DNA of 64,000 nt from assembly GCA_000934665.2 (NCBI GenBank), contig JYFJ02001671.1:1-64000 (forward strand), written 5' to 3'. Of the stretch, positions 43,651 to 64,000 are shown in pieces. The stretch comes from Catajapyx aquilonaris (Eukaryota). Positions within the stretch are counted from its first letter, which is position 1; each line of letters opens with the position of its first letter. The translations under genes and the position numbers were made by a program. A model generated the notes under the pieces. That model ran no database searches and had not been told where the DNA came from. It saw nothing but the letters and a program-made list of their open reading frames with translations.

Positions 43651-45340
43651 ATGGCGGTGGTCAGCAGGGCAGCCGTCAACCTTGGGCACAACCTCGTCGC
43701 CGCCTCCAGCAGACTCACAGTTCAAACCACCCGGATCAGTCAGCTGATGCCTCTTAGGATCAGCCAGGTCAACAGGCTGCTGGTTAAGGTCATTAGGTCA
43801 ACCACATGCCGGGTCAGGCCGGCAGGAAAGGTCATGCTGGGTGCAGGGCTGTGGTCCATGCTCAAGTGGGGGTCAGAGGAGACCCAGAAGATGACCACGG
43901 ACGAGGAGAAGCTGGTCCACCTCATCAAGCTTGGGGTCAAAGCAGTGCAGGTCAGTATAATATGGCACAGGTCACACCACAGTTATTAATACGGTACTGT
44001 AAATTAATATGACTTAACTAATCATTTAACCAATAATAAAACAAAAAATTATAACTGATAATAATACAAGCAATACGATATATTAATGAGACAACCGATA
44101 ATATGTAGCAAATAGCATAGCATAATGTAGCTATTATTGTGGCTAATATAAACAATGACCTTAATAACATAACCAATGATGTAGCTAATAACATAACCAA
44201 TGATGTAGCTAATAATATAGCCAATGATGTAGCTAATAATATAGCCAATGATGTAGCTAATAATATAGCCAATGATGTAGCTTATAATATAACCAATGAT
44301 GTAGCTAATAATATAGCCAATGATGTAGCTAATAATATAACCAATGATGTAGCTAATAATATAGCCAATGATGTAGCTAATAATGTAGCCAATGATGTAG
44401 CTAATAATATAGCCAATGATGTAGCTAATAATGTAGCCGATAACATGAATATAACTAATAATATGAATAATTAATAATTTATTTAAATGACTTGGGGGGA
44501 TTAGGATGGTGAAACGAAGAAGGCGGAGCAGCTGTTGCATCTTGCGCTACGTACAGCGCAGGAGATTCAGTCGAGCGATGGGATTACGTACATTTACGAC
44601 CTGCTGGCGAACATTGCGTACGAGGAGGGTAATGTGGTGAAGGCCGAGCGGTTGTTTCTGGACGTGATGCGTCGCCTGTTCGACTCTGGGAAGGCGAACG
44701 ATTGCAACGAGGTGGTGCACATCAGCCTGAAGCTTGCGTCCATGTATGCGCAGTCGGGGGACTTTGTGAAGGCGGACGAAGGGTTCAGGTTCTGCGTGGA
44801 GACCCAGCAGAAGAAGGTGGACCAGGGGGTGAGGGACGAGGACACCATGAACCTCTGGGCGCTCAGTATGGACAGCTTCGCTCACTACCTGCTGGGCCGC
44901 AGAAAGGTAAGTCGTCGCATACGTTACATCATCAGTACGTGCTCTAACATTAAATGTAATCGCAGATTGAAGAAGCCCGGACGTACTTCCAGAAGGCATA
45001 CGATGTCTGCAAGTCCGTTCGGGGTGACACCGACGAGCAGACACTGATACTGCTGGGCGACCTTGGAGGTGTCAGCTCGATGCTCGGAAAGTACGAGGAG
45101 GCACAGGACTTGTACCAGGAAGCGATCAAGCTTGGTAAAGAGAGCGAGTGTACAGTACTGGGCTCCCTGTACGTAAACTCGGGTGTGGTGTACGTACACC
45201 AAAGGCGAATGAAGGATGCGGAGGACGCATGTACGGAAGCGAGAAGACTGGGCAGGCTCCGGAACGACAAGGAGGTGGAGAAGGAGGCTGCGGACTGCCT
45301 GCAGGAGATCAAGAAGATCCTGCTCGCCACTCACAAATGA
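43651..45340 (+). CDS. TTC19: Tetratricopeptide repeat protein 19 homolog, mitochondrial (complex III quality-control factor)
   Basis: Exons 43651-43950, 44505-44906 and 44966-45340 with GT/AG boundaries, all phase 0; about 358 aa. Basic, acid-poor N-terminus (MAVVSRAAVNL...) resembles a mitochondrial presequence. KAEQLLHLALRTAQ, ITYIYDLLANIAY, KAERLFLDVMRRL and HISLKLASMYA match TTC19 TPR helices. Confidence 0.88.
44160..44445. repeat. 24-bp minisatellite (CCAATGATGTAGCTAATAATATAG)n in TTC19 intron 1
   Basis: About 11 copies; gives rise to the spurious ANNIANDV/IISYIIGY ORFs. Confidence 0.92.
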
Positions 45341-45682: not shown

Positions 45683-46785
45683 TCAGCAATCATCACCCTC
45701 GGTCACCACAATTACGTTTACAGCCACACGTGCCACCAGGGCACCTTTCTTATCCTCCTCGATGGACCATGCACTGTTCAGAATGTCTTCAGCCAGCTGA
45801 TCCGGATCAACCGGCTCGCTCACACTGTCCGCTGATGCTGTGAAGATCAGCACGGATCTTCTGAATGGCGCATCATCATCGTTGCAATAACCGTGCAGCA
45901 AAAGCGCTGCATCACGATTGAGCCGGTGTATCCCATAAATTATGGCGACATGACCCGTGTCCAAGCTCATCTTCAGTTGCGAATCTAGCTTGACACCTGA
46001 CAGTCCGCTGGAGAAGATCGGACTAGGAGGCGGCTCTTGAAACGCGGCGGCAACAACCACAGCCAGATCACGGGCCAAGCAGCGGCTCGTCGACTCGCTT
46101 CCAGGCGTACTGATCAGAAGCAGCACACTCGGTCTGGGTGGATCCTTCCGAAAAACTTGCTGGATACTGGACCCCAATGTGTTCCAGGAGCGGCGTGGCT
46201 GAGCCGCATACTTGGCCTGAAGCTGGCGGTACTCCCCCGTAAAAAACTCCCGCATCTCCGCTCTCTCCCGAGCCGCATCGTCGCAAACACTGAGTGTCCA
46301 ATTGCTGCAGATCATATCCAGTGCGGTCGTGCTCATCGCTAAGCACGCTACAACCGCACCAATTACGCCAAGCAAACACACCATGTTACGACAACAGTTG
46401 CTTTTAACTGGTCTAATAGACTGTTTAGGTGGCGAGGACGCACGCTTGGTGACCTTTGACTTGAAGCGTTTTGGCGTCTCCGCTTCATCCGTCTGGCTCT
46501 CTGATGAAGCGTCGCTGGACCGCCAACCTCCTTTCACATCATCATTTGGCAGCACCTGAAGTAAGTGCATCAGTTAATTGCAGTACTTCTACTAGTGAGG
46601 AGATCCAGAAGATCATGCTCAGTGCTCGGTATTAAAATGTGATCTGCGCAAGCCATGATAGCTGCATAATCTTGCCATGGCAAAGCCACAATAACATTCA
46701 TTGGCGTGAGCCGCCACAAAAACGTATATTACAGCTAGGTGCATACCAGGGTTGGCGGCGTGTGGTCTCCGTCGGCGTCTGGCAT
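45683..46785 (-). CDS. TOR1AIP1: Torsin-1A-interacting protein-like (LAP1/LULL1 family), single-pass nuclear envelope/ER membrane protein
   Basis: Main exon 46555-45683 after ttacttcag acceptor; probable upstream exon 46785-46747 (MPDADGDHTPPTL|gtatgc), phase 0; about 303 aa. Hydrophobic segment VCLLGVIGAVVACLAM, then an AAA+-like luminal domain with PSVLLL, RCLA, LHGYCNDDDAPF and DKKGALVARVAVNVIVV. The start exon is less certain, and the sequence cannot distinguish LAP1 from LULL1. Confidence 0.8.
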
Positions 46786-48360
46786 CCTGTGACCCCCTGT
46801 CTATCCCCAGATTAAAGCTAGATCATGTTATCTATTTATCTATTAACTATCATAGAACTAGCCGCACTTTGAACGGAACAAGTCATGGCGATGGCAAATA
46901 GTGTCGATTCGGTCGATATCATAGCATGCAGTCGATAGTCGATACTAGTAGACGGTTGCGATACGATCCTTTTTGGAACGGATGCTGCTCCTACATAATA
47001 TTATTTATTAATTATTAATGATGTGTTATGTAGGCTTTTCTACGTACTGTAGGGTAATATTTCCGGTATTACAGAGAAAGTGAGCGTACTTTCTCTGTAC
47101 TTATTATTATGCCCGTACTTTCACTGGCGGATATGTTATTACGATACTGTACATTATACACACTCTTGGTTCATTTCGAGCCACATTTCGAGTGACGGGT
47201 TCCGGATCGGTTTCAGAACAATTCTGGCCCAGTTCTGGACCGGTTTCAGATCGGTCAGCGCTCGGGTCAGCTCCAGCCATGGCAGATCAGGCCGCCTTGG
47301 CCCTATACAGTCGTACATCTCTCATGACGTCCTCATCCCTGTGAGGTCATCCCTGTGAGGTCATCGAGCTGTGAGGTCATCGAGCCACTTGGGAACCTCA
47401 TCAAGCCCACCACCACTGTACGACTAAAGAGAATTTCATTGTACTTTGTGATCACCTGTTCTAATTCAGATTGTTTTTTTTTTGACATAAAATTAATTAT
47501 TATATTAACCCAGATATTCCGGGAAGGGTTTTTTGTTTACTTTTTGAACTTTTTTCGTTTCTGTTAGTTTATATTACTAGTTCCTGAAACACAAAAATCG
47601 AGATAATAAAGCATTTTTCTGAATGTTTGTTTGCGAGAAAATGGGGTGTTGCCTATATAATTATGGGATGCTAGGAAAATGTAATCTAGTATGGCGGTTA
47701 CATTACCATACCAACAGCGACATACAGCAATATCCCATAGGTTCATAATATTCACCGATGATTGATTGTTGCCGATTGCATTACCAACGGAAACAGGTCG
47801 TGCAAAGAAAGGGTTGTGATTGAGTCACAATCGAGCATTGTTATTGCCACGGTTGCCATGTTAAACTGCCGTCAAAAATATTATTATCGAAGACACACAA
47901 AACAAATCAGAACTAAAAGTATTTTTATTCGAATGAAAAACAGTTGCTGGAAAAGGCGCAACTGTTGACACAATAAAATAATGCTGATGGAAAAATCTAA
48001 CCACTTGTAACAATATCTGTTCTTGAATGCTGCACTCTTTTCTTTTCTTTTCTTTATTTATTTTACAGGAAATCTTTTAGGCCAATGTGAGGTTATAATA
48101 AGTTCCTTGGAGGTATCTCTGCATACAGTTTTGCACTTCCTGCTCCTGGCTCGGGACCGGTTCTGGATCGGTTTCAGATTGATTTCGACGCAGTTCCGGA
48201 CCGGTTCTGGAACGATTCAAGATCATGTTTCAGATTTATTTCGACCCAGACCCGGTTCCGGACCGGTTCCAGATCAGTTTTAGATTTTGATTTCGACCCG
48301 GTTCCGGACCGGTTCCAGATCGGGCTCCGGTCCAGTTCCGATCCCATGTGAATGCCTTGG

Positions 48361-48720
48361 TGACGTCAAACTCAAACTGGTGCCACTACACAGCGCATGC
48401 GCACTGTCCCCGCTCGATACCCTCTCCTACCCCCCCGTGATTGGCTCGAGCTCCAACATGGCCACACTCTGATTGGCCCTGAGCTCCAACATGGCCACCA
48501 GGACACCGCACGCAATGCACTATGGGTATGAAGTCGGCCATCTTGCTGCTCCCTGACATCGATTGGCTTCTGGATCAAATCGCGGGCTGTGATTGGTATA
48601 GAGAGCGGACGACCCACCCGCCCCCTTCCTTCTAGAGAGCCCCGTTGCATTATGGGCCTCCCCTCCCCCCCCACTCTGGCTGAATCATCCCCCCTCCCCC
48701 TCCAATCAGTAGTGTTCGGG
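48361..48720. promoter_or_regulatory. GC-rich promoter region upstream of dynamin with clustered CCAAT boxes; possibly bidirectional with the TOR1AIP-like gene
   Basis: GATTGG at 48439, 48471, 48561 and 48591, CCAAT at 48702, TGACGTCA at 48361, duplicated gagctccaacatggccac; 120-480 bp upstream of the dynamin ATG. Confidence 0.55.
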
Positions 48721-48838
48721 GAGCAACCCCCTCCCGTCGAACGTTGTGACTTGTCCTCCTCTCCTGTGGTCTGGTCGTTTCCCTTCCATCGCCAGTGGGT
48801 GTTCCTCGAAGACAGCCGGTGCAACACACAGCCTGGCC

Positions 48839-51800
48839 ATGGCGAACTCGGGGAACCAAGGCATGGAGAACCTCATCCCGATCGTCAACAAGCTCCAGGA
48901 TGCCTTCACGCAGCTGGGCGTGCACATGCAGTTGGACCTCCCGCAGATCGCAGTCGTCGGAGGACAGAGCGCCGGGAAGAGCTCCGTGCTAGAGAACTTC
49001 GTCGGGAGGTCAGTCAGTCTCTCTGTTCATATACAGGGGCCGGGGGAGACGGGTTTATTAAAAAGAGAAGAAGAGGAGTTGGTGGGGGTAAGAGGGGGTG
49101 GAGGGGTAGGGGGAGGAGGAGAGGTGAAGGCCATGATTGATCCGGAGAAATGTGATCAATAAAGGGGCTGAAAAGAAGAGAGGAGGAGGAGGAGGGAGGG
49201 CACACAGCATGTGTGCTTGCGTGGGAGGGTGCGTTTTAAGGTCACACACACTGCCCTCCTCATGTACGATGCTCATGTACCACCCCTTGCGGGACACACC
49301 GTTCAATGAAATAAAAGGTGTCCCCCGGTCGCCCCGGACAAGGCATTCCGCACTCTATTTACTTAGTGTTTCATCAGGTCTTACGTAATTAAATTTATAT
49401 AATCTATTGTATTTCATCTAGTTAAAACTTTTATTGGGTTGAATTTTTGTTACTGCTAACCGCTGCTAACTTAGCAGTGACATGGTCAACACTGGCACTG
49501 CTTCGTTAGAAGTAACTAGCAGTGGGACTAAAATTCCGCCCATTATACAGGGTGGTCCAAGTTCAAGTGTCGTTTTATAACGGCGATTAATAGAAGCGCT
49601 TAACGATGACGTAGCAGCGACGTGTAAAATTGCCCACTTCGATTGCGCCGAAGATGCACCGAAGTGGGACATTTTACGCGTCGCTGCTACGTCATCGAAA
49701 AATCACTGCTATTAATCGCCGTTATAAAACGACACTTGAACTTGGACCACCCTGTATTTTTCTAATTGAATGGCCCGCTGGAACAAAAGCCCAAGTCCAG
49801 TCCAAGAAGTGGGTGGGCACGAAGGAAATATTTTTTTCCTGGGAATGGCAATGAGTCCTAGGCATTTGACTTCGTGAGACAGGCCCATAAAGGCCGCCCT
49901 GAATATAATATGGCGAGATTCCCGCATCGATACAACAATCAGTGGAACCGTATTTTGCAATTTACATATTTGGACTTGGACTTTTGTTTTGTTGGGAATG
50001 ATCGACTTGAGCTTTTGTTCCATAGGAACGTGGACTGCTGAAAAGGAATTCTGTTGAGTGGCTGCTAATATTTGCAGTTTGTGTGATGAAGCAACATTAT
50101 GCCGTACCAATATTGCTTTCACAGGGTCAAATATACGTGCTGTACATCCCTATATGGTACTCCCAGAGGACCATTCGACAACAGTTGATATTCTTTCTTG
50201 CTGCATTCCTATGAGGTCAGTCAGACACCAAGAGGCGTGTACTGGCCGAGGCCGTCTTGAGTTGAACTCGAGGATGCGACTCTACCTGACGTTAAAATGA
50301 CGTATGCTGGGCAAGCAATCAACACCCAGCACACGTCATTTTGACGTCAGGTAGAGTCGCATCCTCAAGTTCAACTCAAGACAGCCTCGGCCAGTGTACG
50401 CCTCTTGGTGTCTGACTGACCCCACATGAATGACATGCCCGCCAGTGCAACACGAGTATGCAGCAAGAAAGAATATCAACTGTTGTCGAATGGTCCTTTG
50501 GGAGTACCATAAGCATGTACAGTACGTATATTTGACCCTGTGAAAGCAATATTGGTACGGCATAATGTTGCTTCATCCCGCAAACTGCAAATATTAGCAG
50601 CCACTGAACAGAATGTGTTTTCAGCAATCCGCGTTCCTATGTAACAAAAACCCAAGTCCATCATTCCCAAAGGAACAAAAGTCCCAAGTCCAAATCAGTA
50701 AATTGCAAAATTCGGTTCCCCTGAGAGTTGTATCGATGCGGGAATCTCACCATATAATTATACGGGTATCTCACCATATAATTATACGGGTGGCCTTTAC
50801 GGACCTGTTTCACGAAGTCAAATGCCTAGGGCTCATTGCCATGTCCAGGAAAAAAATATTTCCTTCATGCTCACCCATTTCTTGGACTGGACTTGGGGCT
50901 TTTGTTCCAGCGGGCCATTCAATTTAATTCGCTGTAGGCTATTTACCTTATTCATTTAATATATAGTACTTCATCTAATTAATTTTTTGTTATTTAATAC
51001 GTTATGGCATCAAATAGTTAATTTTGATATTCCGGACATGGCAAGGCATTACGTACTTATTTACTTTTCCACATATTACTTATCTGATTTAATTATTTTT
51101 ATATTTGATGTATTTGTGTAATTTATTTCATGGGTTATTTATTATATTATGGTACAGTACCCCCTAAAAGAGCTGTGCCCTGTCACAGGGTAATAAATAA
51201 ATAAATAAATAAGTATTAATGTACTCTATGTTGTTAAATCAATTAAATTTAATACCCAGAGTACATACGTGGCAAGACATGTACTTTTTTATTATGTAAT
51301 TTCAATTCCCCCGACATGGCATCTTTATTTATTATAACACCCTGGATATTATGGTAAAACATGTACTTATTTGTTTACTTATTTTAAGACATTGGGCATG
51401 ACATTACGGGCTAATTCAACCAATTAGGCTGTACGTGACAGGCGTCTTAATGATATTGGGTGCCATAAGTGTGGCATACAACGCCAGGAAGGCCTTGCGA
51501 CGAAACCCACTCTTCTATCAGTAGATTGCGATTAGGTAATCACAGGATGAGATTAAATGTTAACGTCACCTGCATGTTGAGTCATGCTGTATTTTTATAC
51601 AAATGTACAAATGTTTTTGTTGTGGTGGTTAATTAAATGTATGTTTTCAGGGATTTCCTGCCTCGTGGAAACGGGATTGTCACAAGACGGCCGCTCATAC
51701 TGCAGCTTTACAACAACCCTTCAGGTGAGGATCCCCTGCAAAAATCCTGACCTACCCTGCGACTCAGCAATCACGGCCAGCCGGGGGAAGGCTATTTGCC

Positions 51801-54800
51801 TCCCAATTTGCAGGCCATAAATCTCATTAGCCTCCAGCTCCCCTCCATCCACCGCCTCCCTTCGCTAAAGCCAATCCGTCTCTCTCTCTCGCACCTCTCC
51901 CCCTTAACCGTTTATTTGATGATGAGCTGATAATTAGATCCGTGGTTGCAAATCCAGAAGTGACATGTTTTTCTACTGAGTCGACAATCACTTCAATTTA
52001 CAAGTGCGGGCAGTTGCTATTTGAGGCGCCCGCTTTAAGCTTGTGATGACATTAAAGCACTGTCACATGCCATGTTTTTTTGTTGTTGCAGAGTACGGCG
52101 AGTTCTTACACTGTAAGGGAAAGAAGTTTATGGACTTTGATGAGATCAGGAAAGAAATCGAGGCTGACACGGATAGACTGACGGGAACCAACAAGGGGAT
52201 CTCCAATGTTCCAATCAACTTGCGAGTTTACTCTCCCCACGGTGAGTTACTTCACACATGTATTGGTAACCTGCTGACTGATCTTAAAAGGAATTTACTT
52301 TTCAACAATGTTCACTGCGAGTGAAGTGAGCCCAGGGCGTGTACCTTACGAATTTTTTCTGTGCCCGTGAATTCCTTTACATCATGCGCCGTGGTGTGTG
52401 GAGTTTGACCACGATTATTCTGATTCAATTGCAATGAATAATTAATGCAGCGGTGACTCAGATCGCGGGCAATTAAATCAGGAATTGGTATGGGTCATCA
52501 CGAGTGGTGCAGCCACATGTCACTTTTTTTTAACCTCCCTTCCACTTTCTATGTCGCAAGTATTGTGTAGCATGTGACTTAATGAGGTGGTTGCGGAAGC
52601 AGCATTACATATGTCGCGGTTGACTGGATGCTGTCTTCCTTTCCCGTCATTGTCATGGTAAATCATTGCGGAATCGGATGAAAGCGAAATAACTTCCTCA
52701 AAATTTAGTAGGGCAGTTGTGCCAGGTCATGATCGTCATATTGCCATTGTGATGTCGAGTATGAAAGGTCAGGTAATCATTAAGTGATATATGATGAGAA
52801 TGTTATCGAAAACACAGTTGAACGGCAAATAATTATGAGCTGCTCTGTGATGAACTTCTGTAAACATATTAGTCAGATTAATGTCTCTTTTTCATGAAGC
52901 GTTGACAAATTTGAACAAGCATATCTTCAGTGGACAATTCAGTTGAGTGATTTTAGAGATCACGTTCACTAGACTCAATTGTCCACTGAAGATAACACTT
53001 GTTTACGTGGGATATGCAAGAGAATGCTAGCGACATCGTAAGTGTTCCTTGTGTTTCTGGAGGCGATAAGATGGTATTGTGTGTGTGAAAAGCTTTTCTT
53101 TCAGCTTTCCAACTTTCCTGGTCAGACGAAATGCAATTTTAAAAAGCCATGATGATGTCGCATTTGTTAATGCAAAAGAAATTAAACTTGCATTCATGAT
53201 GGTTCATGTGGAGTACAAATAATTAACATGAGCCCCTGGGGCCGATGTTTCTTTTCCCCTTTTCCATTCCAATCCTCTCCGTTTTGCGAAACAGTTCTGA
53301 ACATCACGCTGATCGACTTGCCGGGTCTGACCAAAGTCCCAGTTGGTGACCAGCCTGTGGATATTGAGGCACAGATCAGGGACATGCTCATGCAGTTCAT
53401 TACCAAGGAGACTTGCCTTATTCTGGCTGTCACTCCTGCCAACACTGACTTGGCCACGTCTGATGCCCTCAATCTGGCCAAAATGACGGATCCTGATGGT
53501 AAAATAGGACAAGAAGCAGTCAGGGGGGCGGTTTTCGTTTTGCATGAAGATCAGTGTTGCGTACATGTTTCCCTTTGATGTTTCCGCACAGTCAGGTTAC
53601 GTTAGCATTGTCAATGCCTGACGTCTCGAAGAGTTATTTTACTCGCACAATTGTATTTTTCGTTTGCTGTGCCACCAGCTTGATACATTGTCTTATTTTT
53701 TGTTCGTTTTTTTTGTTTCTATTGCTTTTCAGTCCTGAGCCTGACCCTCATTGACCTCCCAGGCATGACCAAAATCCCTGTAGGTGACCAGCCTGCCGAC
53801 ATAGAGACCCAGATCCGCAACATGATATTGCAGTTCATCAAAAGGGACTCGTGTCTCATTTTAGCCGTGACCCCGGCCAATGCCGATCTGGCCACTTCCG
53901 ATGCCTTGAAAATGGCCAAGGAAGTTGATCCGCAAGGTATCTCTTTGCTTTTATTTTTTTGAACAATAAGGAAGAGTTTGAAAGGAAATATAATAGTCAG
54001 ATCACTAATTTAAAGGCAAAGTGAGACACTCTAATATCCCAATTGCGTATTCACTCGCAACTAACCGATCTTTTTCATGCCAAAGTGTAGTGTGAGGATA
54101 ATGGTGATGTATTATTTACCCCCGCTTTGCATGAATGTCTCAAATTGCATGCTTTTAACACTTGAAGGGTCGCCCCAAATAATGTTGTAAGTGATTATTG
54201 TAACCCATGTCACTTACAACAGTATTCGGGGCGACCCTTCTTGTTGATGTTTTTATTTGTTCTGGGGTTGATTTCACGTCCGTCATGAGTTGTTGCCGGG
54301 ATCGACTGACTTTGTGTCTGTGACAGGTATGCGGACCATTGGTGTGATAACCAAGCTTGATCTTATGGATGAGGGAACGGATGCCAGGGATATTTTGGAG
54401 AACAAACTGCTCCCGCTGAGGAGAGGTTACGTAGGAGTTGTCAACAGGAGCCAGAAAGACATTGATGGTAGAAAAGACATTAAGGCGGCCTTGGCTGCGG
54501 AAAGAAAGTTTTTCTTGAGGTAAGTCGTACATCAAATTAAGATTTTCTCGAGTGTAATATTGTGCATCTCTCTCGCCTTTTAGCCACCCATCGTACAGGC
54601 ATATGGCGGACAAGTGCGGCACACCGTACCTGCAGCGGGTTCTGAATCAGCAGTTGACCAATCACATTCGGGAGTGCTTACCCAGCCTCAGAGATAAACT
54701 CCAGAAGCAGTACTTGCAGCTGGAGAAGGAAGTGGAACAGTTCAAGTATTTTAGGCCGGACGACCCTGCAATCAAGACTAAGGCTATGCTGCAGTAAGTT

Positions 54801-57800
54801 TTGTTTGGATCCGATGTTATGACTGTTGCAACCATGAGCACTGAGGATTGCCCTTTCCCTTCAACACAGGATGATCCAGCAGCTCCAGTCAGACTTTGAG
54901 AGGGCCATCGAGGGATCGGGCTCGGCCAACATCAACACGAACGAGCTGTCGGGTGGAGCCAAGATAAATCGCCTTTTCCACGAGCGGTTCCCGTTTTTGA
55001 TAGTCAAGACAGAGTTCAACGAGAAGGAGCTGAGGAAGGAGATTGCCTTTGCCATTCGCAACATTCACGGTATCAGAGTCGGACTGTTCACTCCTGACAT
55101 GGCCTTCGAGGCCATCGTCAAGAAGCAGATAGAAGGCCTGAAGGAACCAAGCCTCAACCTTGTAGATCTGGTCGTTATTGAGCTGTGCAACGTAGTCCGG
55201 TTCTGCACAGACAAGGTAATGCTATGACCTTCGTATGACCTTCAAGTGAACTATGAATAGTTAGGCGTTTATTAAATCATAAGTGCCTTTCGTGGGCATC
55301 ACTTCTCATGAAATCTTCCCTCTTAGATGGCAAGGTATCCCCGCTTACGGGAGGAGACCGAACGCGTCATAACGACACACATCCGCGAAAGGGAGCAGAT
55401 CTGCAAAGCACAGATACTTCTGCTCAATGACTGCGAGCTGGCCTACATGAACACCAACCACGAGGACTTTATCGGGTTCGCCAAGTGAGTAAACCGCCCT
55501 TTTTTCCATTTCCTGTCACTTTTTTATATATTCAAAGAGCATGCAGTTGTCGTTTTAGGTCATAGATCTTGTAGACGTGTATTGGGTTCGGGGGCAAAAT
55601 TTTGGTAAGGATTTCAATGTTTTGCCATGGGGTTCAATCTAGTGAGTGATGAAATGGTCTGCCTCACCATGCCATCACGAGATTGTTATGGCGTTTATTT
55701 TTTTTCAGTGTTACCATTTTTAACCGTTCCACCCCCCACTTTATAGGTACGATTTATTTGAGCCTGATACGATGGGGCCGGGGAAGATGACCAGGCAGGC
55801 CAGTTGCACCGGGTGACTAAAAATAGATCTTAAAAAAAATAAACGAGCTCGTGTTTTGTGATAATTAAAAAGCTTGTTGCCATCCCCTCACTCACTAAGA
55901 TTGACTTTGCTGCTAACCCCGTATAGCCAAGCCTCATTACGGCTTCTATTTATTTTGGTGTGCAAGTATGAAGTGAAAGGGGGTGTGAAACGAGGGAAAA
56001 AAAAAGAAAGGTGTGCCATGCTGACATCATTAATCAAAAGATTTGTAATTTCACAGTACCAAAGAGTTGCTTTTATATAATTTTTTTAGTAGTTATGTGT
56101 GGTTTTTTTTAGTGCATGGAGGAGTATTTTATTGGGTACAAAAATGACAGTTTGCTTTCGAGTGTGTCCGAGTGAAGGAACACTAGCGGCTTACATGAAT
56201 ACACCATTTATTTATCTGCTCCAACATGTGAACGCGTCGAGTAGTTTGTGATTCCGCAAGATAAATACCGACCATTTGCTCCCCAAAATGCTCCTGCACA
56301 AAAAATATTTTAAAAAGGTATCGTGGCAAGATTAATGATGGTAACTTTAAGACTTGAGTTGCATTATTCCCAGTTAATGCATGACACATCTATTTTAAGT
56401 AATATACCCTCATTGGACATTTGCTTTTTTTTTAAATTAAAAAAATAATAATAAACATACATCTCCCATTATTTTAAAACCCAAGACTTTTTTTTGGGGG
56501 GTAGGCTGGGTTTGGATTTAAGATTTATCCACTGAAGTTTTATCCACAAGTTTTGTATACACCTTTGGGGGAAATGGTGTAACGAGACTGTATCGCATTG
56601 TAAAGTAATGCTTTCACTTTAAAGGCTGCAAAGTTTCCATCCGGCGGACAGAACAGAACGGTCAGTTTACCCAAAGACCTCCTCTAGTCCAAGCATTTTT
56701 AGTTCTGCACAAAACTCTCATATATATTATAAACTATATCGAAAAGTCATTTGCTACTTGACTTTTTTCAAAAAAAGCACGAGGCAAGTTGTTCAGGACT
56801 GACGGCCATCCCATTTTTTTTTTTTTTTTCTCTCTCTCGCTCCTCCCATCCTTTTCGCTTCTTGATCGTTACGGAACAAACCCTGCCTCAGTGCCCAGCA
56901 GAGCAGTGAGAACGCAGCAAAAGCAGGCCGCAAGCTTGGCAACCAGGTGATCCGCAGGGGCTACATGTGCATCCACAACCTGGGGATCATGAAGGGTGGA
57001 TCCAGGGACTACTGGTTTGTTCTCACCTCGGAGAGTCTCTCCTGGTTCAAGGACGAAGAGGTCAGTTGGTCACGTATTTTTAATTGCACACTTGCGCTGG
57101 GTTAAGATTTTGGCAATTGCCCGGACCCCTCCGCCACGCTCGCTTCCTCTGCCATGAGGTTGCAAGTGCCAGTTTATGAACTCGAGGGGAAGATTAATCG
57201 CCTCTGTTAAGGAAGCACCTGATTTCGATTCAGATGGAATGTGGGTGTGCCGTAAACAGTGGGACAGATCAGGCACCTCTTATGTCTCGGTGTGAAAAGT
57301 ATGATTCCTTTTGGGAGACATGAAGTAATACTTTTTTTTACCGCGTTTGCAGGAGAGAGACAAGAAGTACATGCTTCCTCTTGATGGCCTTAAATTAAGA
57401 GACATCGAGCAAGGGTTCATGTCTCGAAGGCACACATTTGCCATTTTCAATCCAGAAGGGCGAAATGTTTATAAGGTAAGAACCATTTTTGCCGCCCCCA
57501 CCTTTTTAAAGTTACGACTTAAATGCAACGTTTGAAATTTGCAGGACTACAAGCAACTCGAGCTCAGCTGCGAAACTGCGGAAGATGTCGACTCTTGGAA
57601 AGCTTCGTTTCTCAGGGCTGGCGTTTATCCCGAGAAGGCTTCGGATCAGCAGAACGGAGACGAGGTCAGTTCGAAATTATCGCTTGGCAATGAAAACCAG
57701 GGTTTGCAAAGTCCTGTGTTGTTTATGACAATGTGCGTAACTAACACCTTGTCTCTTTGCCCTCTTTTGTTATAGGGAACGGTAAGTGTTTAAAAATGGG

Positions 57801-60800
57801 GAAACCTAACTCCAAACAGTTACGACCTAACCTCCCTCCCCACTCAAAAAAGAAAAGGTGAGGTTGATCAGATCCAGTTTGTAGTTGCAATTTTAGTTCT
57901 GTTTTTTTTGGCAGGCTGGAAACCTTATCCTCTTGATACAGTATTGCTGGGCTCAGTTTCGTTTTGCAAGGGGAGTGGTGTTTGGTTGCTTTATTTTCCC
58001 ATGTATCTTTGCGTCGTACATTTTGGTTGGGTGCTCTTGATTTACTGTTACACATTGCTTTACTTAGTTGGAAGCGATGCAGTCCGACTGGCTATTTTTT
58101 ATTTACGTTGTTGCACCTCACTATTGCCTGTGTACAAAATAAGTGCACCACATTGTACTCGAATTGATGATCAATAGGTTTTGAATATAACTGGGTAAAG
58201 TTAAACGATAGTTACTCGATCACTGCGGCAGACCAGATTGAATTGAGCGATGTTATGCCATACTAATGCGGAAATAGGTCACGTAGTTGTTGATATTTTT
58301 CTATGGCAGTGTCTTTACATGGTTTGCAGCAGTATTGCAGCTGCATTGTACTCAATAACTTCGTACAGTTTTGCTCTTTGAACTTGGGGAAAGGGGTTGC
58401 TGCCCTCATTCCGCAAACATGATGAAGATATTAATTAGTGCGAATATGCCAGAGTTGATGGAAGGAGGGCAGTGTGTGCCACGGTGTCCTTTTGTGTACA
58501 TACAAATATTTTCACGCCTGATGAGCATCGAATGATGGGAGTGCGAGCTACTTGTCCCTCCCTGATCTTCGATGCTCCTTGCAAATATGTTTTTGTGTTG
58601 TTTTTTTCCCTTCAATGTGCTTTCCCTAAACCATGTTTCTTCTTTCCAAAAATGGCCAAAAATGCTGGTTTCTACAGAATGAGGTGTGTTCTGCTTAAAT
58701 GAAATTATTGGTGCATGCAGTGCATTTTGATTTGTGTTTTCTTGCTGCCTGTGCACGGATCTCTTAGCGAGTACCTCGGAGCTTAAATTGTGCAACTCAC
58801 ATTTGCTGCGTCTGTGTATTTTTGCAGCCGATTTTACACCTTTGTTTTTATCACACGAAACAAATTTTAAGTAGTAGGAAAACGGGAATTAGCTCTTTTG
58901 TTGCATCTGTCAATAACTACAATTACCTGCCAGTTTCTTCGAGAAATATTTTTGCCAAATTGTAAGTCACTTTTCGAACTATTGCGATAATGTTTGATGA
59001 AGGTTGTGTTCCAATCCATCCTTTACCCTGGAGTGCGCATGAAAGTAGCCTGTGTTGAGAACCTTTGCACTTGCAGTTGGTTGACATATACTTCCCATGA
59101 GCTTACTTGATTACCGCTGGGATTAGTCCGCTGCCTAATCGCAGGCTGGCAGAAATTATGTGAAAGTGACGCATGGACTATCGATTAGCAGTCGCAGTAC
59201 CAAGTAAGATTTTGCGGAGGTATGTTAGTGCTCATTCAACACTGGATGTGAAATAGCGTGTTAGGCATACACTGTCGTGTGAGTGTATTTTATCTGGTGT
59301 GCCTTCTTCTCCACCTTTCCCTTTGCCTTTATCGACTTTCTCAGTACATTTGGCGTAGTTTGCATGGATGGGAAGCCTAATGGAAATGCATTTTCTTTGC
59401 GCTCCCAACCACCCAAAGCAGAGTGGCGGGGACACGTCATCCCTGGATCCTCAACTGGAACGCCAGGTGGAGACGATACGCAACCTGGTGGACTCTTACA
59501 TGAAGATTGTGACCAAGACCACCCGTGACCTGGTGCCCAAGTCAATCATGAACCTTGTCATCAACGATGGTAAGGACTTCATCAACGGGGAGCTGCTGGC
59601 CCAGCTCTACGCCACGGGCGACACGGTCAGTAGCGTCACTTTGGCCTGAAGCTAGGAGAAGCCTGACTCAATGGGGCTTCACTCTTTCAGCAAGCGATGA
59701 TGGAGGAGAGTCAGGAGGAGGCGCTTAAGCGAGAGGAGATGCTGCGGATGTACCATGCATGCAAGGAGTCTCTCAGAATCATCGGGGACGTCTCCACGGC
59801 CACTGTCTCCACCCCACTGCCGCCTCCAATCAGAGGAGGAGACGACCAGTATCTTAGGACAGGTTCAGAGAGTCCCAGGTACGGTAGAGGTTTGCAGATT
59901 GCATCGTGTCGGGCATGACTCCCATTAGCATCAATGCGTTGTTGTGGATGCTGCTTGGTTCCCACTAAAGAGAGGCAGTTGATTCTGCGGCTATGCTTAT
60001 TCCCTGATAAGAAAATTGCAATTCATTATTGAAACACCTGTAAAAAAAATTTGAATAGTTGATATCCGCATTTTTAGAGCCACCAGTGTTTGGGAAGACG
60101 AGAAAGCCTAAATATTATCTGCATGTCTTGTCGCTTTTGGTGTGTAGTTACATTTGTCGTTTTTTTTTCTCTCCCCCTCCCTTACCAACTCTCTCCGCAT
60201 GCCCATTGTCGCCCTGTTCTCCTGCTTTTGGTTTTCCCGTCTCCTGTACCCCCTAACCGTATCCAGTCTCCCCAGGCAGCCTCCGTCGTCACCTGGTGGC
60301 CCAAGGAGGGGCCCTCCTCCCACGGCTCCTGCCGCAATGGCCCCAAGCGGAGGTGGGAGGGGCCCCCCTCCAGTACCACTCACCAGGCCTGCTCCGTCTG
60401 TGCCCAACAGGCCCACAGCAGGGGCCCCGCAGGGTGGTAGGCCAGGGGTAGGACTGCCCCCACCGCTCATCCCTTCGTAAGTACACTTTGTAACATTGCA
60501 TGTTGTGTTTAAGGAGGTTAGAGGTACAACCAAAGGTACGACCATCTGTAAACGCAAACCAAATCATTGGCCGCAGTCATTAATTCATCAAGTGTGTATA
60601 GATGGTCATACTTTTCGTGTAGGATGCGTAGTGCTTTGGAGAACAAGTGTTTTGTGCATTAACCGTGGAAAGGTGCTTAGAAATTGTACGAGCCAGCCAG
60701 CGTTTAGAACACAAGTACGTAAGCCGAAGTGACGTAAAGTCCATCCAATCATCAGTAGTGGGAAGTACATGTAGATTGAACTTATCCGCACATTTTTGGA

Positions 60801-62828
60801 CAATACCATTTGGCAAGTGTGATCAGAGTTTGTGTTAATCTTGTGTGGAAACATGTCTGCTGCGAAATCTGATAGAAATGTAGTTAATGTGGTTGTAGAG
60901 TAGTTATTCTCTGTCTTGATGATGGAGGCAAATTTGATATTAGCTTTTGTCGTAACCCGTGTGATAACAGGCAAAATTTTTAACCAGATTTGGAAAAGGT
61001 GCAGTTCCATTTTGTGTAATGCTTCCCGATTCATCTAGTTGTGATTTTATTTGCAGGCTTGTTATTCATGATCCGTCTTACGTTGCCCATAAGAAAAACG
61101 CCACGGTGTGATGTTTTGGCGGAGAAGTTTGTGGCTGGTTTTTCCAAGCAGCACAGAGGCTCGTTATCGTGGCCCTAATAAAAACCCACTTGTTTTCCCG
61201 CGCACTATGCATGTCATTAGACATAATTACCGTACTCTATCAGCAAGTGGACCTTTTTTTTTTCTTTTCCTATTTTGTATGATCTCAATTCCTTCGAGAT
61301 TGTCACCTCTGCACAAAATAACAATATTTAAACCCCTTCCCGAACTAAACAATAATAATAATAATTGTTTACTTCTAGAAGGGGTTTCAATATTGTTATT
61401 TTGTGCAGAAGTGACAATCTCTCACTTTTCGGGTGTTTCTTTTGCCCTTCGAAAAGTGCGAGCGCAAGATGTGACTAGTGAAGGTTCCTTCACTAGTCAC
61501 ATCTTGCGCTCGCACTTTTTGCAGCTTTTGGAACCTATTGTTGTTCATTCAGCTCCATTGGTGCATGGCACTAACTTTTTTTCCGCATTGGGGGATATCA
61601 CAGTGTTAACGCAATGCACCACTGGTCCAGTTTATATTTTTTGGTGTATTAAACGAGAAGTTGTCTTCCATACCTGGAGATCAGAGTTGGTTTTTTTTTT
61701 TACTCCTGTGTTTTTTGGTGTGCTTTGGAACAGGATGCTTCGAAAATAGTGTACTGGGCATCTCTGAATTGTTATATTTTGTACTGTCAAATTTGTGGTA
61801 GCGAGGCATCCTGCTACAGTCCGTCACACAGTAAATGCTTTACTGTGTGATGGACTGTAGTTGCTTGTTTTTCCGCGGTCATGTTAGACCTGGGACGTAG
61901 CCAATTAACATGAACTTTCGTAACGATTAACCAGCATGCGAGTGTCCCAGATCTAATGTGCCCCGTGCACGTGATGCTTTCCGTAGAACTAGTGAAAGAT
62001 AAACAGTGGTGCATTTTCCAGTGCATTAAAAAAAAATTACATGCTTTTTGCTTTTTTTTGACTTCTTCCCCCAATTGGGTGTGTTCATATAATTAATTCC
62101 CATTATTGCCCCCAACAAAACTGGTGGACAGGGTTTTGGCAAAGCCTTTATCTTTAATCTTCTTTTCTGTCGTCTCCTCCCCACTTTTTTTTTGTTCGTT
62201 CTCTTTCGCCAACTTGAAACAACAAGGCGCACCTCGCCCCAACCTCGTTGAGTGTGCACAAGGACAAAGCGGACTTGTTCTAGGTTTAGGTTCCACTTGG
62301 CACTTGATTGTAGGAGAAGGAGGAGGAGGAGGAAGGGGGGATTAAAAAAAAAAAGAGTAACAAAATGAGAAGAAGTGTGGCTTATATAGTTGTTTAAGAA
62401 TCTACGAATCAAGCTCTCTCTTGGTCTCTCTCGTGTTGTTGTTAATTGCTACTAATCGCTGCAATAATGTCAAGTTTGGCAGCACTTTTCCCGGGGGAAA
62501 GGAAGCTCCGAAGGGGGGCCACAGTTTGCAATGTCGACTGCCTGGGGCCGTTGTTGTAAAAGCGGCAGTGGAAATTGCAAGCTGCTCGTACTGTGTTTTT
62601 TTTGGCCTGTTTGCCGTTATAGATGTTTGCAAAAATAGTAGAAGAGAGAGGGGTCCAAATAATGTGGGTGTCAAAATGTGGAGGCGATAACTATTGTCAA
62701 ATTGGGCCATTTGCAGCCGGCAGGGGGGAATGCCCCCAATACCACAGCGGGTGCAGCAAGCCATGGGACAAGCGGTGGCCAATGCAGCGGTGAATGAGTT
62801 AATGGACATGTTCGGCAGTCATAAGTAA
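48839..62828 (+). CDS. shi: Classical dynamin (shibire ortholog): GTPase, middle, PH, GED and proline-rich domains
   Basis: Exons 48839-49008, 51651-51724, 52092-52241, [53295-53498 or 53733-53936], 54327-54519, 54584-54793, 54870-55215, 55327-55484, 56892-57060, 57353-57475, 57545-57664, 59422-59625, 59691-59878, 60267-60476, 62717-62828. All are GT-AG and phase-compatible; about 876 aa. Motifs: GGQSAGKSS (G1), VTRRPL (G2), DLPG (G3), TKLD (G4), PH-domain YWFVLT and [31 protein letters not shown], and PRD. Confidence 0.97.
49548..49754. mobile_element. Tc1/mariner-type palindromic MITE, 207 bp, copy 2 (dynamin intron 1)
   Basis: TA|CAGGGTGGTCCAAGTTCAAGTGTCG...CGACACTTGAACTTGGACCACCCTG|TA; same length as the copy at 9958. 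Confidence 0.88.
49764..50924. mobile_element. ~1.16-kb foldback (long inverted repeat) element in dynamin intron 1
   Basis: Arm 49764-50311 mirrors arm 50325-50924 (AATTGAATGGCCCGCTGGAACAAAAGCCC... / ...GGGCTTTTGTTCCAGCGGGCCATTCAATT) with scattered substitutions and indels; 13-nt central spacer. Confidence 0.85.
53295..53498 (+). CDS. Dynamin exon 4a (mutually exclusive candidate)
   Basis: aacag|TTCTGAAC...CCTGATG|gtaaaa; 204 nt, phase 1-1; [68 protein letters not shown]. Confidence 0.88.
53733..53936 (+). CDS. Dynamin exon 4b (mutually exclusive candidate)
   Basis: cttttcag|TCCTGAGC...CCGCAAG|gtatct; 204 nt, phase 1-1; [68 protein letters not shown]. Confidence 0.92.
55747..55812 (+). CDS. 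Candidate 66-nt dynamin cassette exon between stalk and PH domain
   Basis: Pyrimidine-rich ...cccccactttatag|GTACGAT...ACCGG|gtgact; phase 2-2, stop-free, encodes (K)[21 protein letters not shown](G). Confidence 0.5.
57776..57781 (+). CDS. 6-nt dynamin microexon (Gly-Thr) after the PH domain
   Basis: Branch-point-like taactaac, long pyrimidine tract, ttatag|GGAACG|gtaagt; phase 0-0 matches the flanking exons. Confidence 0.7.
61452..61519. repeat. Perfect 33-bp inverted repeat with 2-nt spacer
   Basis: AAAAGTGCGAGCGCAAGATGTGACTAGTGAAGG-TT-CCTTCACTAGTCACATCTTGCGCTCGCACTTTT. Confidence 0.95.
62227..62251 (+). CDS. Candidate alternative terminal exon of dynamin (S-RTSPQPR*)
   Basis: Long pyrimidine tract ~62150-62210, then aacaag|GCGCACCTCGCCCCAACCTCGTTGA; phase 2 fits exon 60267-60476. 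The AAG acceptor is weak. Confidence 0.35.
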
Positions 62829-64000
62829 GCCCACCCCAGTGTGTCCCCCCCTTCAAAAAAATGCAATACAATCCAAATCCCCAAATCCCGTCCCCAAGAA
62901 CGAAGCTCTCTTTAGTTGGTCTGTGTCTAATCAACTCTAAAAAAAAGAAATTCCGGGGAAACTGAGAAAAAAAGTGTGAATAACTTCCTAACCTCCCCCC
63001 GATTGTGTTGTGGTTTTTTAGTCAGTTTAAAACAAATAATCTGCCTTAGGCAGGAGCATGCTGGCTTCAGTGTTTTTGGGAAAGAGCAAAAAAAAAAAAG
63101 GCGGACACTGCAATGTAAGAGCTTTGTGGTGAGGGATCTTTCTCTTTTTGCGGTAGAGCTCATGCCAAACATCTCTCGCACTCAAAATTTTTAATTCCGA
63201 TCAGTATTTAAATGCCGAGCTTGGCAGTTGCTTTTTTTTGGGGGTTTGGTTTTGTCCGTGCAGGCTTTGGGGATTTGTTAAAATGCAAGTGCGGGAAAGC
63301 ACAGGTGTAATTTTAGTGCTCTCTATTGTAATGTGTATATAATAATCGGTATGTATAATGGACAAGTAAGACAACAACTCAAAAAAAAAGAGCAAAAAAA
63401 AATGGAAAAATATTTGCCTTGCACCCGTTGTTTTTTCTTTGTCCGCTAATTAGTAACATCAGTCAATTATTAACCCAAGTAATAATGCACCTGTGCATTA
63501 AGTAGTTTTCACAATGTCATATTTATATTTTACTGTTGTAGATATTGTTAAATAACGTTAATGGTTAAGTGAAAAAAAAAGGAGACGTGGTTATGTAACG
63601 AGAGGCCCTCTCTCGATGTTAACTCCCCAAACGTTGATGTAAATTTTAAAAAGAAAAAAAAGCTTGTTGACTAATTAAGTGTGGGGGATGATGTTGAAGA
63701 AATTTATTGCCGTTTGGTTTTTCTTTGCGATTAACCGAAGCGAATTAAAACATTCCAGCTGTGTTGTAGCCTCTGTGTTTTAGAGAGAAAAAAATAAAAA
63801 AAGTAAAATATGGGAAAACGGATAATGTGAGTAGCAAGTTTAAAAAGCAAAAGGCGTCTCGCACACAGTCTAAAATAGGCTCTTAGACTCAGTATTCATT
63901 CCAAGTTTTTGTGATGCGTGTTTGCACATGATGTCTTAGGTCTGGTGATCGTTACAGTTTTTAAATTACGGTTTTAATTATTTCAGTTACCATTTTTAAA

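Follow-up and report, generated by a model that had tools for sequence, protein, structure and literature searches.

A tandem pair of G-domain core exons, probably mutually exclusive, in the dynamin gene of Catajapyx aquilonaris and other arthropods

The first 64,000 nucleotides (nt) of Catajapyx aquilonaris contig JYFJ02001671.1 (assembly GCA_000934665.2), here called the window, contain a dynamin gene in which one coding exon is present twice. The copies, exon 4a (53295..53498) and exon 4b (53733..53936), encode two versions of the same 68-residue core of the GTPase (G) domain. Our analysis suggests that 4a and 4b are very probably a mutually exclusive exon pair that arose by an ancient tandem duplication in the arthropod dynamin gene. 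The pair is real, ancient and of a known kind, and its location is both unexpected and mechanistically central.

The four exons concerned lie on the forward strand. Exon 3 (52092..52241, 150 nt) and exon 5 (54327..54519, 193 nt) are constitutive, and their boundaries are joints in a spliced contig described below. Exon 3 is preceded by AG at 52090-52091 and followed by GT at 52242-52243 in the donor ACG/GTGAGT. Its final base, G at 52241, opens a split codon that is finished by either 4a or 4b. Both of these exons are 204 nt long and in phase 1-1, with AG before and GT after (donors ATG/GTAAAA in 4a and AAG/GTATCT in 4b), and in each the sole open frame is the one that starts with the exon 3 G. 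The copies are interchangeable in frame: G/TN gives Val at the start, and G/GT gives Gly at the end, completed by the GT with which exon 5 begins. Introns of 1053 nt (52242..53294), 234 nt (53499..53732) and 390 nt (53937..54326) separate exon 3, 4a, 4b and exon 5; the first and the last contain a hairpin each. Re-reading confirmed every sequence statement of the initial annotation on two tandem 204-nt phase 1-1 exons with sound splice sites and no stops.

Exons 4a and 4b share 49 of 68 residues, with the split first codon counted, and 141 of 204 bases. This recount gives the figure reported before, and the many synonymous differences are also there: among the 67 whole codons, 48 specify the same residue and 27 of these 48 do so through a different codon. 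The motifs DLPG, TKxPVGDQP and ANxDLA are present in both copies and the C-terminal ends differ (NLAKMTDPD in 4a, KMAKEVDPQ in 4b), all as claimed. The likeness is far above chance. In tblastn searches against the whole window each peptide matched only 4a and 4b (E 1e-40 and 8e-31), the next match having E 0.6. No further same-strand coding duplicate emerged when 48000-64000 was compared with itself in translation, and no third or decayed copy of the exon was found within the window. Both exons align to the same positions of Pfam Dynamin_N (PF00350; 102-156/157) with 57.1 and 57.2 bits, above the cut-off. Exon 5, whose product contains the G4 motif TKLD and the beginning of the middle domain, matches Dynamin_M (PF01031). 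The Pfam scan covered 4a, 4b and exon 5; the gene's PH and GED parts are visible as open frames.

The segment corresponds to residues 129-196 of human dynamin-1. The placement of G3/switch II and the trans-stabilizing loop in this exon, as proposed initially, is borne out by this mapping, which includes Asp180. Both exons have the classical-dynamin features DLPG (the G3 DxxG motif) and Asp at column 52, equivalent to 180, and DLPG, Lys142, Gly146 and Asp180 are identical in 4a and 4b. We take the trans-stabilizing loop to span approximately residues 176-188. Asp180 of this loop bonds in trans with Gln40 and Ser41 of the partner P-loop and with switch I, and the D180N substitution severely impairs assembly-stimulated activity (PMC3561337, PMC3747075). 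The G interface takes in both switches and the trans-stabilizing loop (PMC5084822, PMC4774019).

The duplication is old. Between 4a and 4b the proportion of differing synonymous sites (pS) is 0.745, which is saturated, and that of differing nonsynonymous sites (pN) is 0.173; the 60 nt of flanking intron on either side are 38% and 27% identical. Saturated synonymous sites, switched codons and unlike flanks together show that the exon was doubled long ago and that neither copy ceased to be coding. A comparison of substitution rates had been proposed as a check, and in it pN falls far under pS, which shows strong purifying selection on both exons. Exon 4a was also compared with eight a-type exons, as we call exons of its kind, from genomic loci in metagenomes. 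Here pN is 0.057-0.106 and pS 0.54-0.88, and 62-63 of 67 residues are identical at saturated synonymous divergence. At the protein level 4a is 94% identical to its best database match and 91% to isoforms X4 of Halyomorpha and Rhodnius, compared with 72% to its own neighbour 4b, the best database match of which is 87% identical.

In a tree of 60 segments and 68 columns, many forks of which are not settled, 4a falls within a 23-row a-type clade with support of 98/96. Among its members are the copy that comes first in Blattella, Gryllus, Daphnia magna, Notodromas and the centipede Strigamia, the isoforms with the a-type alone from Hemiptera, Periplaneta, Schistocerca and Daphnia carinata, and, in the copepod Tigriopus, the two copies together. 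The b-type copies, holometabolan proteins and non-arthropod dynamins form a grade without resolution in the tree. Since the clade spans centipede, insects and crustaceans, the a-type exon is at least as old as the ancestor of myriapods and pancrustaceans. Exon 4a is the orthologue of this conserved exon. Its terminal branch is very short (0.034, compared with 0.14 for 4b). Taken together, the comparative data point to 4a as a functional alternative exon.

Transcript evidence from this animal comes from X1, the one public run listed as containing part of the window; its library type is not on record, and none of the listed runs is recorded as RNA. One 2569-nt contig aligns to 51600-55300 without a mismatch and with five joints of the GT..AG type, which after cut shifts are 51724>52092, 52241>53733, 53936>54327, 54519>54584 and 54793>54870. 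The joints establish that the 4b form exists as spliced RNA and that the boundaries 52241, 53733, 53936 and 54327 are correct. The junction check laid out in the initial annotation is therefore answered in part: 52241>53733 and 53936>54327 are present in the contig, and the 4a junctions were not seen there, in an assembly type that drops rare variants. No X1 contig covers 53212-53707; since contigs lose rare variants, this gap is uninformative on the use of 4a.

These data raise the question of whether 4a is an unused relic, that is, whether the pair is ancient but this lineage splices 4b only and 4a is heading to decay. The contig that joins exon 3 to 4b across 4a fits such a scenario, and so do the splice sites of 4a, with a donor off consensus at +5 and +6 and a weak-looking, purine-interrupted acceptor tract: 12 of the 18 bases before the AG are pyrimidines and the tract ends GCGAAACAG. 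The 4b tract is T-rich, with 15 of 18 pyrimidines (TTGTTTCTATTGCTTTTCAG). But exon 4a has no stop or indel, its AG and GT are intact, and its short terminal branch and the 62-63 residues it retains relative to a-type exons elsewhere are not what decay would leave. The weak acceptor also recurs: the acceptors of the a-type exons in metagenomic loci L004, L006 and L008 end GACAG or AACAG, and the b-type acceptor of L008 is TTTCAG. The weak acceptor of a-type exons in other genomes thus looks like a conserved regulatory feature and not like decay. We consider a relic unlikely, and 4a is probably used in this animal as well.

The differences between the two copies are systematic. We compared diagnostic columns in 17 a-type, 16 arthropod b-type and 7 non-arthropod rows; the a- and b-type sets were picked by us from the tree and exon order, so the following counts are partly circular. 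Position 132 is Ile in 16/17 a-type rows and Leu in 16/16 b-type rows. Position 158 is Asp in 17/17 a-type rows and variable (S/G/N/A) in b-type rows. At 166, a-type rows have Lys (16/17) and b-type rows Arg (12/16); at 167, Glu (17/17) and Asp or Glu; at 168, Thr (17/17) and Asn or Ser. Thr183 in 15/17 a-type rows is matched by Asn in 12/16 b-type rows, and Lys188, present in 16/16 b-type rows, is replaced in 15/17 a-type rows. Position 192 is Gln, Ser or Met in a-type rows (Glu in 3/17) and Glu in 14/16 b-type rows, and position 196 is Asp in 16/17 a-type rows and Gln or Ala in b-type rows. Exon 4a carries an arthropod-specific signature of I132, D158, K166-E167-T168, T183, N188 and D196. 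The non-arthropod rows side with the b-type at 132, 168, 183, 188, 192 and 196, so the b-type looks ancestral and the a-type derived. Mean pairwise identity is 87.6% among the 17 a-type rows and 81.9% among the 16 b-type rows; the derived type is the more conserved one.

Because 4a and 4b do not differ in any catalytic residue, the a/b differences surround the machinery and leave the machinery itself untouched. This agreement of all residues known for catalysis or trans action is what would be expected if the two exons were functionally equal and used non-exclusively or noisily, with a neutral alternative kept by drift. Drift would hardly preserve Asp158, Glu167 and Thr168 in every a-type row and Ile132, Lys166 and Asp196 in all but one, and a higher conservation of the a-type than of the b-type is unexpected for a neutral variant since before the split of centipedes and pancrustaceans. 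Neutral equivalence is improbable on these grounds. The two G domains may differ in GTPase regulation, kinetics or partner preference.

The same architecture is found in other arthropods, as the initial annotation had suspected. In nine named arthropod gene models, those of Blattella, Gryllus, Tigriopus, Darwinula, Notodromas, Daphnia magna, Armadillidium, Strigamia and Stegodyphus, one copy directly follows the other, the first at residue 130 and the second at 198 (209 in Notodromas); in searches of longer proteins with either exon these models reach approximately double the score. A partial two-copy model exists in Cordylochernes, and five further read-through frames contain both copies. RefSeq isoforms with the a-type alone are on record for bugs, locusts, cockroaches and water fleas. 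Scanning of metagenome contigs yielded 80 loci. Nine are genomic with two or three tandem copies, each exactly 204 nt and bounded by AG and GT: L004, L006, L007, L008, L011, L012, L013, L018 (three copies) and L020, among which L006/L007 and L008/L011/L013 are near-identical sets. Of the 80 loci, 19 contain the exon within an open frame of 300 residues or more and are regarded as mRNA-like on that basis; exactly one copy is present in 19/19, and 12 of the 19 reach 76% identity or more to 4a and bear the a-type signature. Among 291 fetched proteins with the full segment, 100 carry only the a-type and 164 only the b-type; 16 have two copies, and in 11 the single copy is ambiguous. Non-arthropod ‘double’ matches (Tetraodon, Saccoglossus, Steinernema) and that of the mite Medioppia were rejected as tandem exons: their copies are hundreds of residues apart and other parts are repeated too, which points to fused gene copies or assembly duplications.

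That both exons are spliced into one message, giving a dynamin with a doubled 68-residue segment as many automatic models predict, is scarcely credible even though 204 is divisible by 3 and nine named models carry both copies in tandem: the contig of this animal and all 19 mRNA-like contigs have one copy, as do 275/291 database proteins, the readable two-copy entries are genome-annotation models, the Notodromas model keeps 11 intron-derived residues between its copies, and a doubled strand β3, switch II and β4 would be expected to misfit a Ras-like fold.

Several observations weigh against mutually exclusive use of both exons. The 4b form is the sole transcript evidence from Catajapyx aquilonaris, the X1 contig running from exon 3 through 4b to exon 5 and jumping 4a. 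Among 196 and 206 fetched rows of proteins and contigs, no organism was represented by both an a-only and a b-only mRNA. The mRNA-like status of the 19 metagenomic contigs is assigned solely from uninterrupted frames (up to 870 residues), and no spliced contig corresponds to a genomic locus of the scan at 90% or higher nucleotide identity. RefSeq X-isoforms are model predictions whose RNA support is not visible, and the diagnostic columns have the circularity noted above. A search for docking/selector pairing yielded, as the best inverted repeat between introns, one of 21 nt with 76% identity, and whole-intron duplex energies lay within those of shuffled sequences (16, 18 and 22 of 60) in what is a crude test. 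The claim of mutually exclusive alternative versions finds good support in the comparison with relatives, through the a-type clade, selection, single-copy contigs and isoforms; in this animal the form seen is 4b.

We propose the following mechanism. The pair would stem from an exon that was duplicated in tandem long ago within the one classical dynamin gene that arthropods have, which is of the shibire type. The exon 3 donor would be joined either to 4b, whose strong T-rich acceptor looks like a default, or to 4a, whose weaker acceptor probably makes it a regulated choice. The chosen exon would then be joined to exon 5, so that the protein receives exactly one 68-residue copy. The swapped segment comprises G3/switch II with DLPG, Lys142 and Gly146, helix α2, strand β4, the trans-stabilizing loop with Asp180, and the next helix. 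Judged from the acceptors, 4b may be the default and 4a an activated choice, and this choice may be regulated by tissue or stage.

Ways of enforcing exclusivity other than the RNA pairing described above were also considered. Frame shift followed by nonsense-mediated decay is ruled out, 204 being a multiple of 3; co-inclusion or double skipping stays in frame, and exclusivity must therefore be set at splicing. Steric blocking is unlikely, as an intron of 234 nt is too long for it. Incompatibility of U2 and U12 sites was suggested by the 4b donor GTATCT and rejected by eye. This donor departs from the U12 consensus; b-type donors are GTAGGA in L008, L011 and L013, and the downstream intron has an ordinary CTGAC-type branch region. 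Both introns look U2-type.

The a-type exon is widely but unevenly distributed. Named a-type isoforms are found in Hemiptera (bugs, aphids, whitefly, leafhoppers and scale insects), Orthoptera, Blattodea, Collembola and Cladocera. T183 together with D196 occurs in 0/81 fetched holometabolan proteins (beetles, moths, flies, wasps and a lacewing), all of which are assigned to the b-type alone, and two lice have the b-type only. Loss of the a-type in Holometabola is likely on this sampling, although the case is weakened by the clustering of the database at 90% identity, at which a-type sequences may hide behind b-type representatives. Some leaf beetle entries are mixed. Dynamin isoform X1 of Leptinotarsa decemlineata (P0255) is a mosaic, with the a-type residues I132, T168 and Q188 and the b-type residues N183, E192 and Q196. 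Diabrotica, Diorhabda and Phaedon also have Q188, with b-type residues elsewhere; some of these entries are labelled ‘dynamin-like’.

In chelicerates (Stegodyphus, P0014 and Cordylochernes) a tandem pair is present in which the divergent copy comes second and has a long branch outside the a-type clade. Copepod-like genomes have yet another arrangement. In L004, L006, L007, L012, L020 and Tigriopus (P0002), the a-type adjoins exon 5 with no b-type between the copies, and the copy upstream of it also falls in the a-type clade but is more divergent. Copepod-like mRNA-like contigs exist for either copy (L021, L022, L024, L054 and L056 for one, P0025 and P0031 for the other). The exon cluster has undergone repeated remodelling in crustaceans, the three tandem copies of L018 included. 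P0025 and P0031 are also sharply unlike in a middle-domain segment just after the IRNIHG motif, with flanks that are alike. This difference, at the place of the alternative exons 10a/10b of vertebrate dynamins, hints at a possible second alternative cluster in some crustaceans.

Other features of the window were recorded as well. A near-perfect hairpin at 52922-52994, ~300 nt upstream of 4a, has 29-nt arms of 90% identity and a 15-nt loop, with minimum free energies of -38.8 (+ strand) and -42.3 kcal/mol (- strand) and z-scores of -7.7 and -9.5. An unspliced 223-nt X1 contig spans 52906-53128, and the window contains no other copy of the hairpin, which may be a foldback element or the precursor of a small RNA. 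A second near-perfect hairpin at 54164-54240, between 4b and exon 5, has the same geometry, with 31-nt arms of 94% identity, a 15-nt loop and z-scores of -10 and -11. X1 contigs match its arms and then diverge into unlike sequence on both sides, so further copies of the arms exist in that organism, in the manner of a miniature inverted-repeat transposable element. The one Rfam match, to MIR847 on this hairpin, is weak (30.6 bits, with a gathering score of 184), and membership in that family was rejected. Dynamin intron 1 contains a large inverted repeat at 49545-50923, in which ~49765-50430 pairs with ~50205-50923 on opposite strands, with stretches of up to 80-100% identity. At 44018-44546, open frames on both strands consist of short tandem peptide repeats (for example ISYIIGY on one strand, NDVANNI on the other), which looks like a tandem DNA repeat and not a gene. 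Adjacent open frames at 44505-45340 (+) resemble a helical-repeat protein, and 45683-46573 (-) is an open frame of 296 residues.

The dynamin G domain is usually seen as one fixed engine, and the known splice variation is confined to the stalk and tail. Here the core of the engine, switch II together with the partner-activating loop, exists in two versions that have stayed separate for approximately half a billion years. The pair is in effect a natural experiment on the tuning of G-G pairing and assembly-stimulated hydrolysis. A tentative and rather doubtful extension is that non-holometabolan arthropods make from one gene two dynamins that differ only in the core. The a-type would be an arthropod invention whose changes near Asp180 (179, 183 and 188) and in the two flanking helices tune hydrolysis or the pairing of G domains across helix rungs, giving rise to separate pools, for example neuronal and general ones. 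If so, arthropods would obtain by splicing the separate dynamin pools whose role is filled in vertebrates by three paralogous genes, and the apparent loss of the a-type in flies, moths, beetles and wasps would account for its having escaped fifty years of shibire genetics. There are also practical consequences. Automatic models wrongly fuse both copies in many arthropods (Blattella, Gryllus, Tigriopus, Daphnia magna, Armadillidium, Strigamia and others), and outside the Holometabola, transfer of a G-domain allele such as shi-ts2 into another arthropod has to reckon with a target codon that is present twice.

Drosophila presumably has a single exon at the place of 4a and 4b. Its shibire is the orthologous gene, and the glycine changed in shi-ts2 is kept in both copies. 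This glycine, in the VPVGDQP motif at exon column 18, is encoded at 53346-53348 in 4a and 53784-53786 in 4b; it is Gly141 in dipteran proteins in which the segment starts at residue 124. The classic shi-ts2 change is G141S, and the fly shibire isoforms discussed in the same source differ at the C-terminus (PMC10926519). The nearest counterparts of the 4a isoform are database entries. Halyomorpha halys X4, Rhodnius prolixus X4 and Periplaneta americana X5, and likewise Schistocerca X3, Bemisia tabaci X8 and Daphnia carinata X2, have as their sole copy a segment 88-91% identical to 4a. They are orthologues of the 4a isoform and group with 4a in the tree; they are annotation records and not a described phenomenon, and Catajapyx aquilonaris is not represented in them. 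In our full-text search we found no paper on an alternative G-domain exon of any dynamin, although supplementary tables of genome-wide surveys could list the pair. The pair is visible in RefSeq isoform records, is mis-merged in several annotations, and has no describing paper that we found.

Within the same protein family, vertebrate dynamin-1 and -2 use the same device, tandem homologous exons 10a and 10b with one per transcript, and the literature matches on mutually exclusive splicing of dynamin concern this pair (PMC3923563, PMC2916854, and PMC5740500 in its reference list). A mutation in one copy is reported to cause isoform-specific disease (PMC2916854), and dynamin-1 10a/10b splicing to be regulated by competing RNA structures (PMC3923563, citing Suyama 2013). 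The initial annotation was right to set the two pairs apart. Vertebrate 10a/10b sits in the middle/stalk domain, whereas the arthropod pair replaces residues 129-196 of the G-domain core and is a different cluster, and within the window the exon of the middle domain is not duplicated. The vertebrate and arthropod pairs are independent duplications. The clusters of Dscam1, 14-3-3 zeta and Mhc, as portrayed in PMC3923563, are likewise tandem homologous arthropod exons of equal length and phase that have long been conserved. Those clusters employ docking/selector RNA pairing, whereas the dynamin cluster has only two exons (three in L018), and no pairing exceeding shuffled sequences emerged from the crude test made here.

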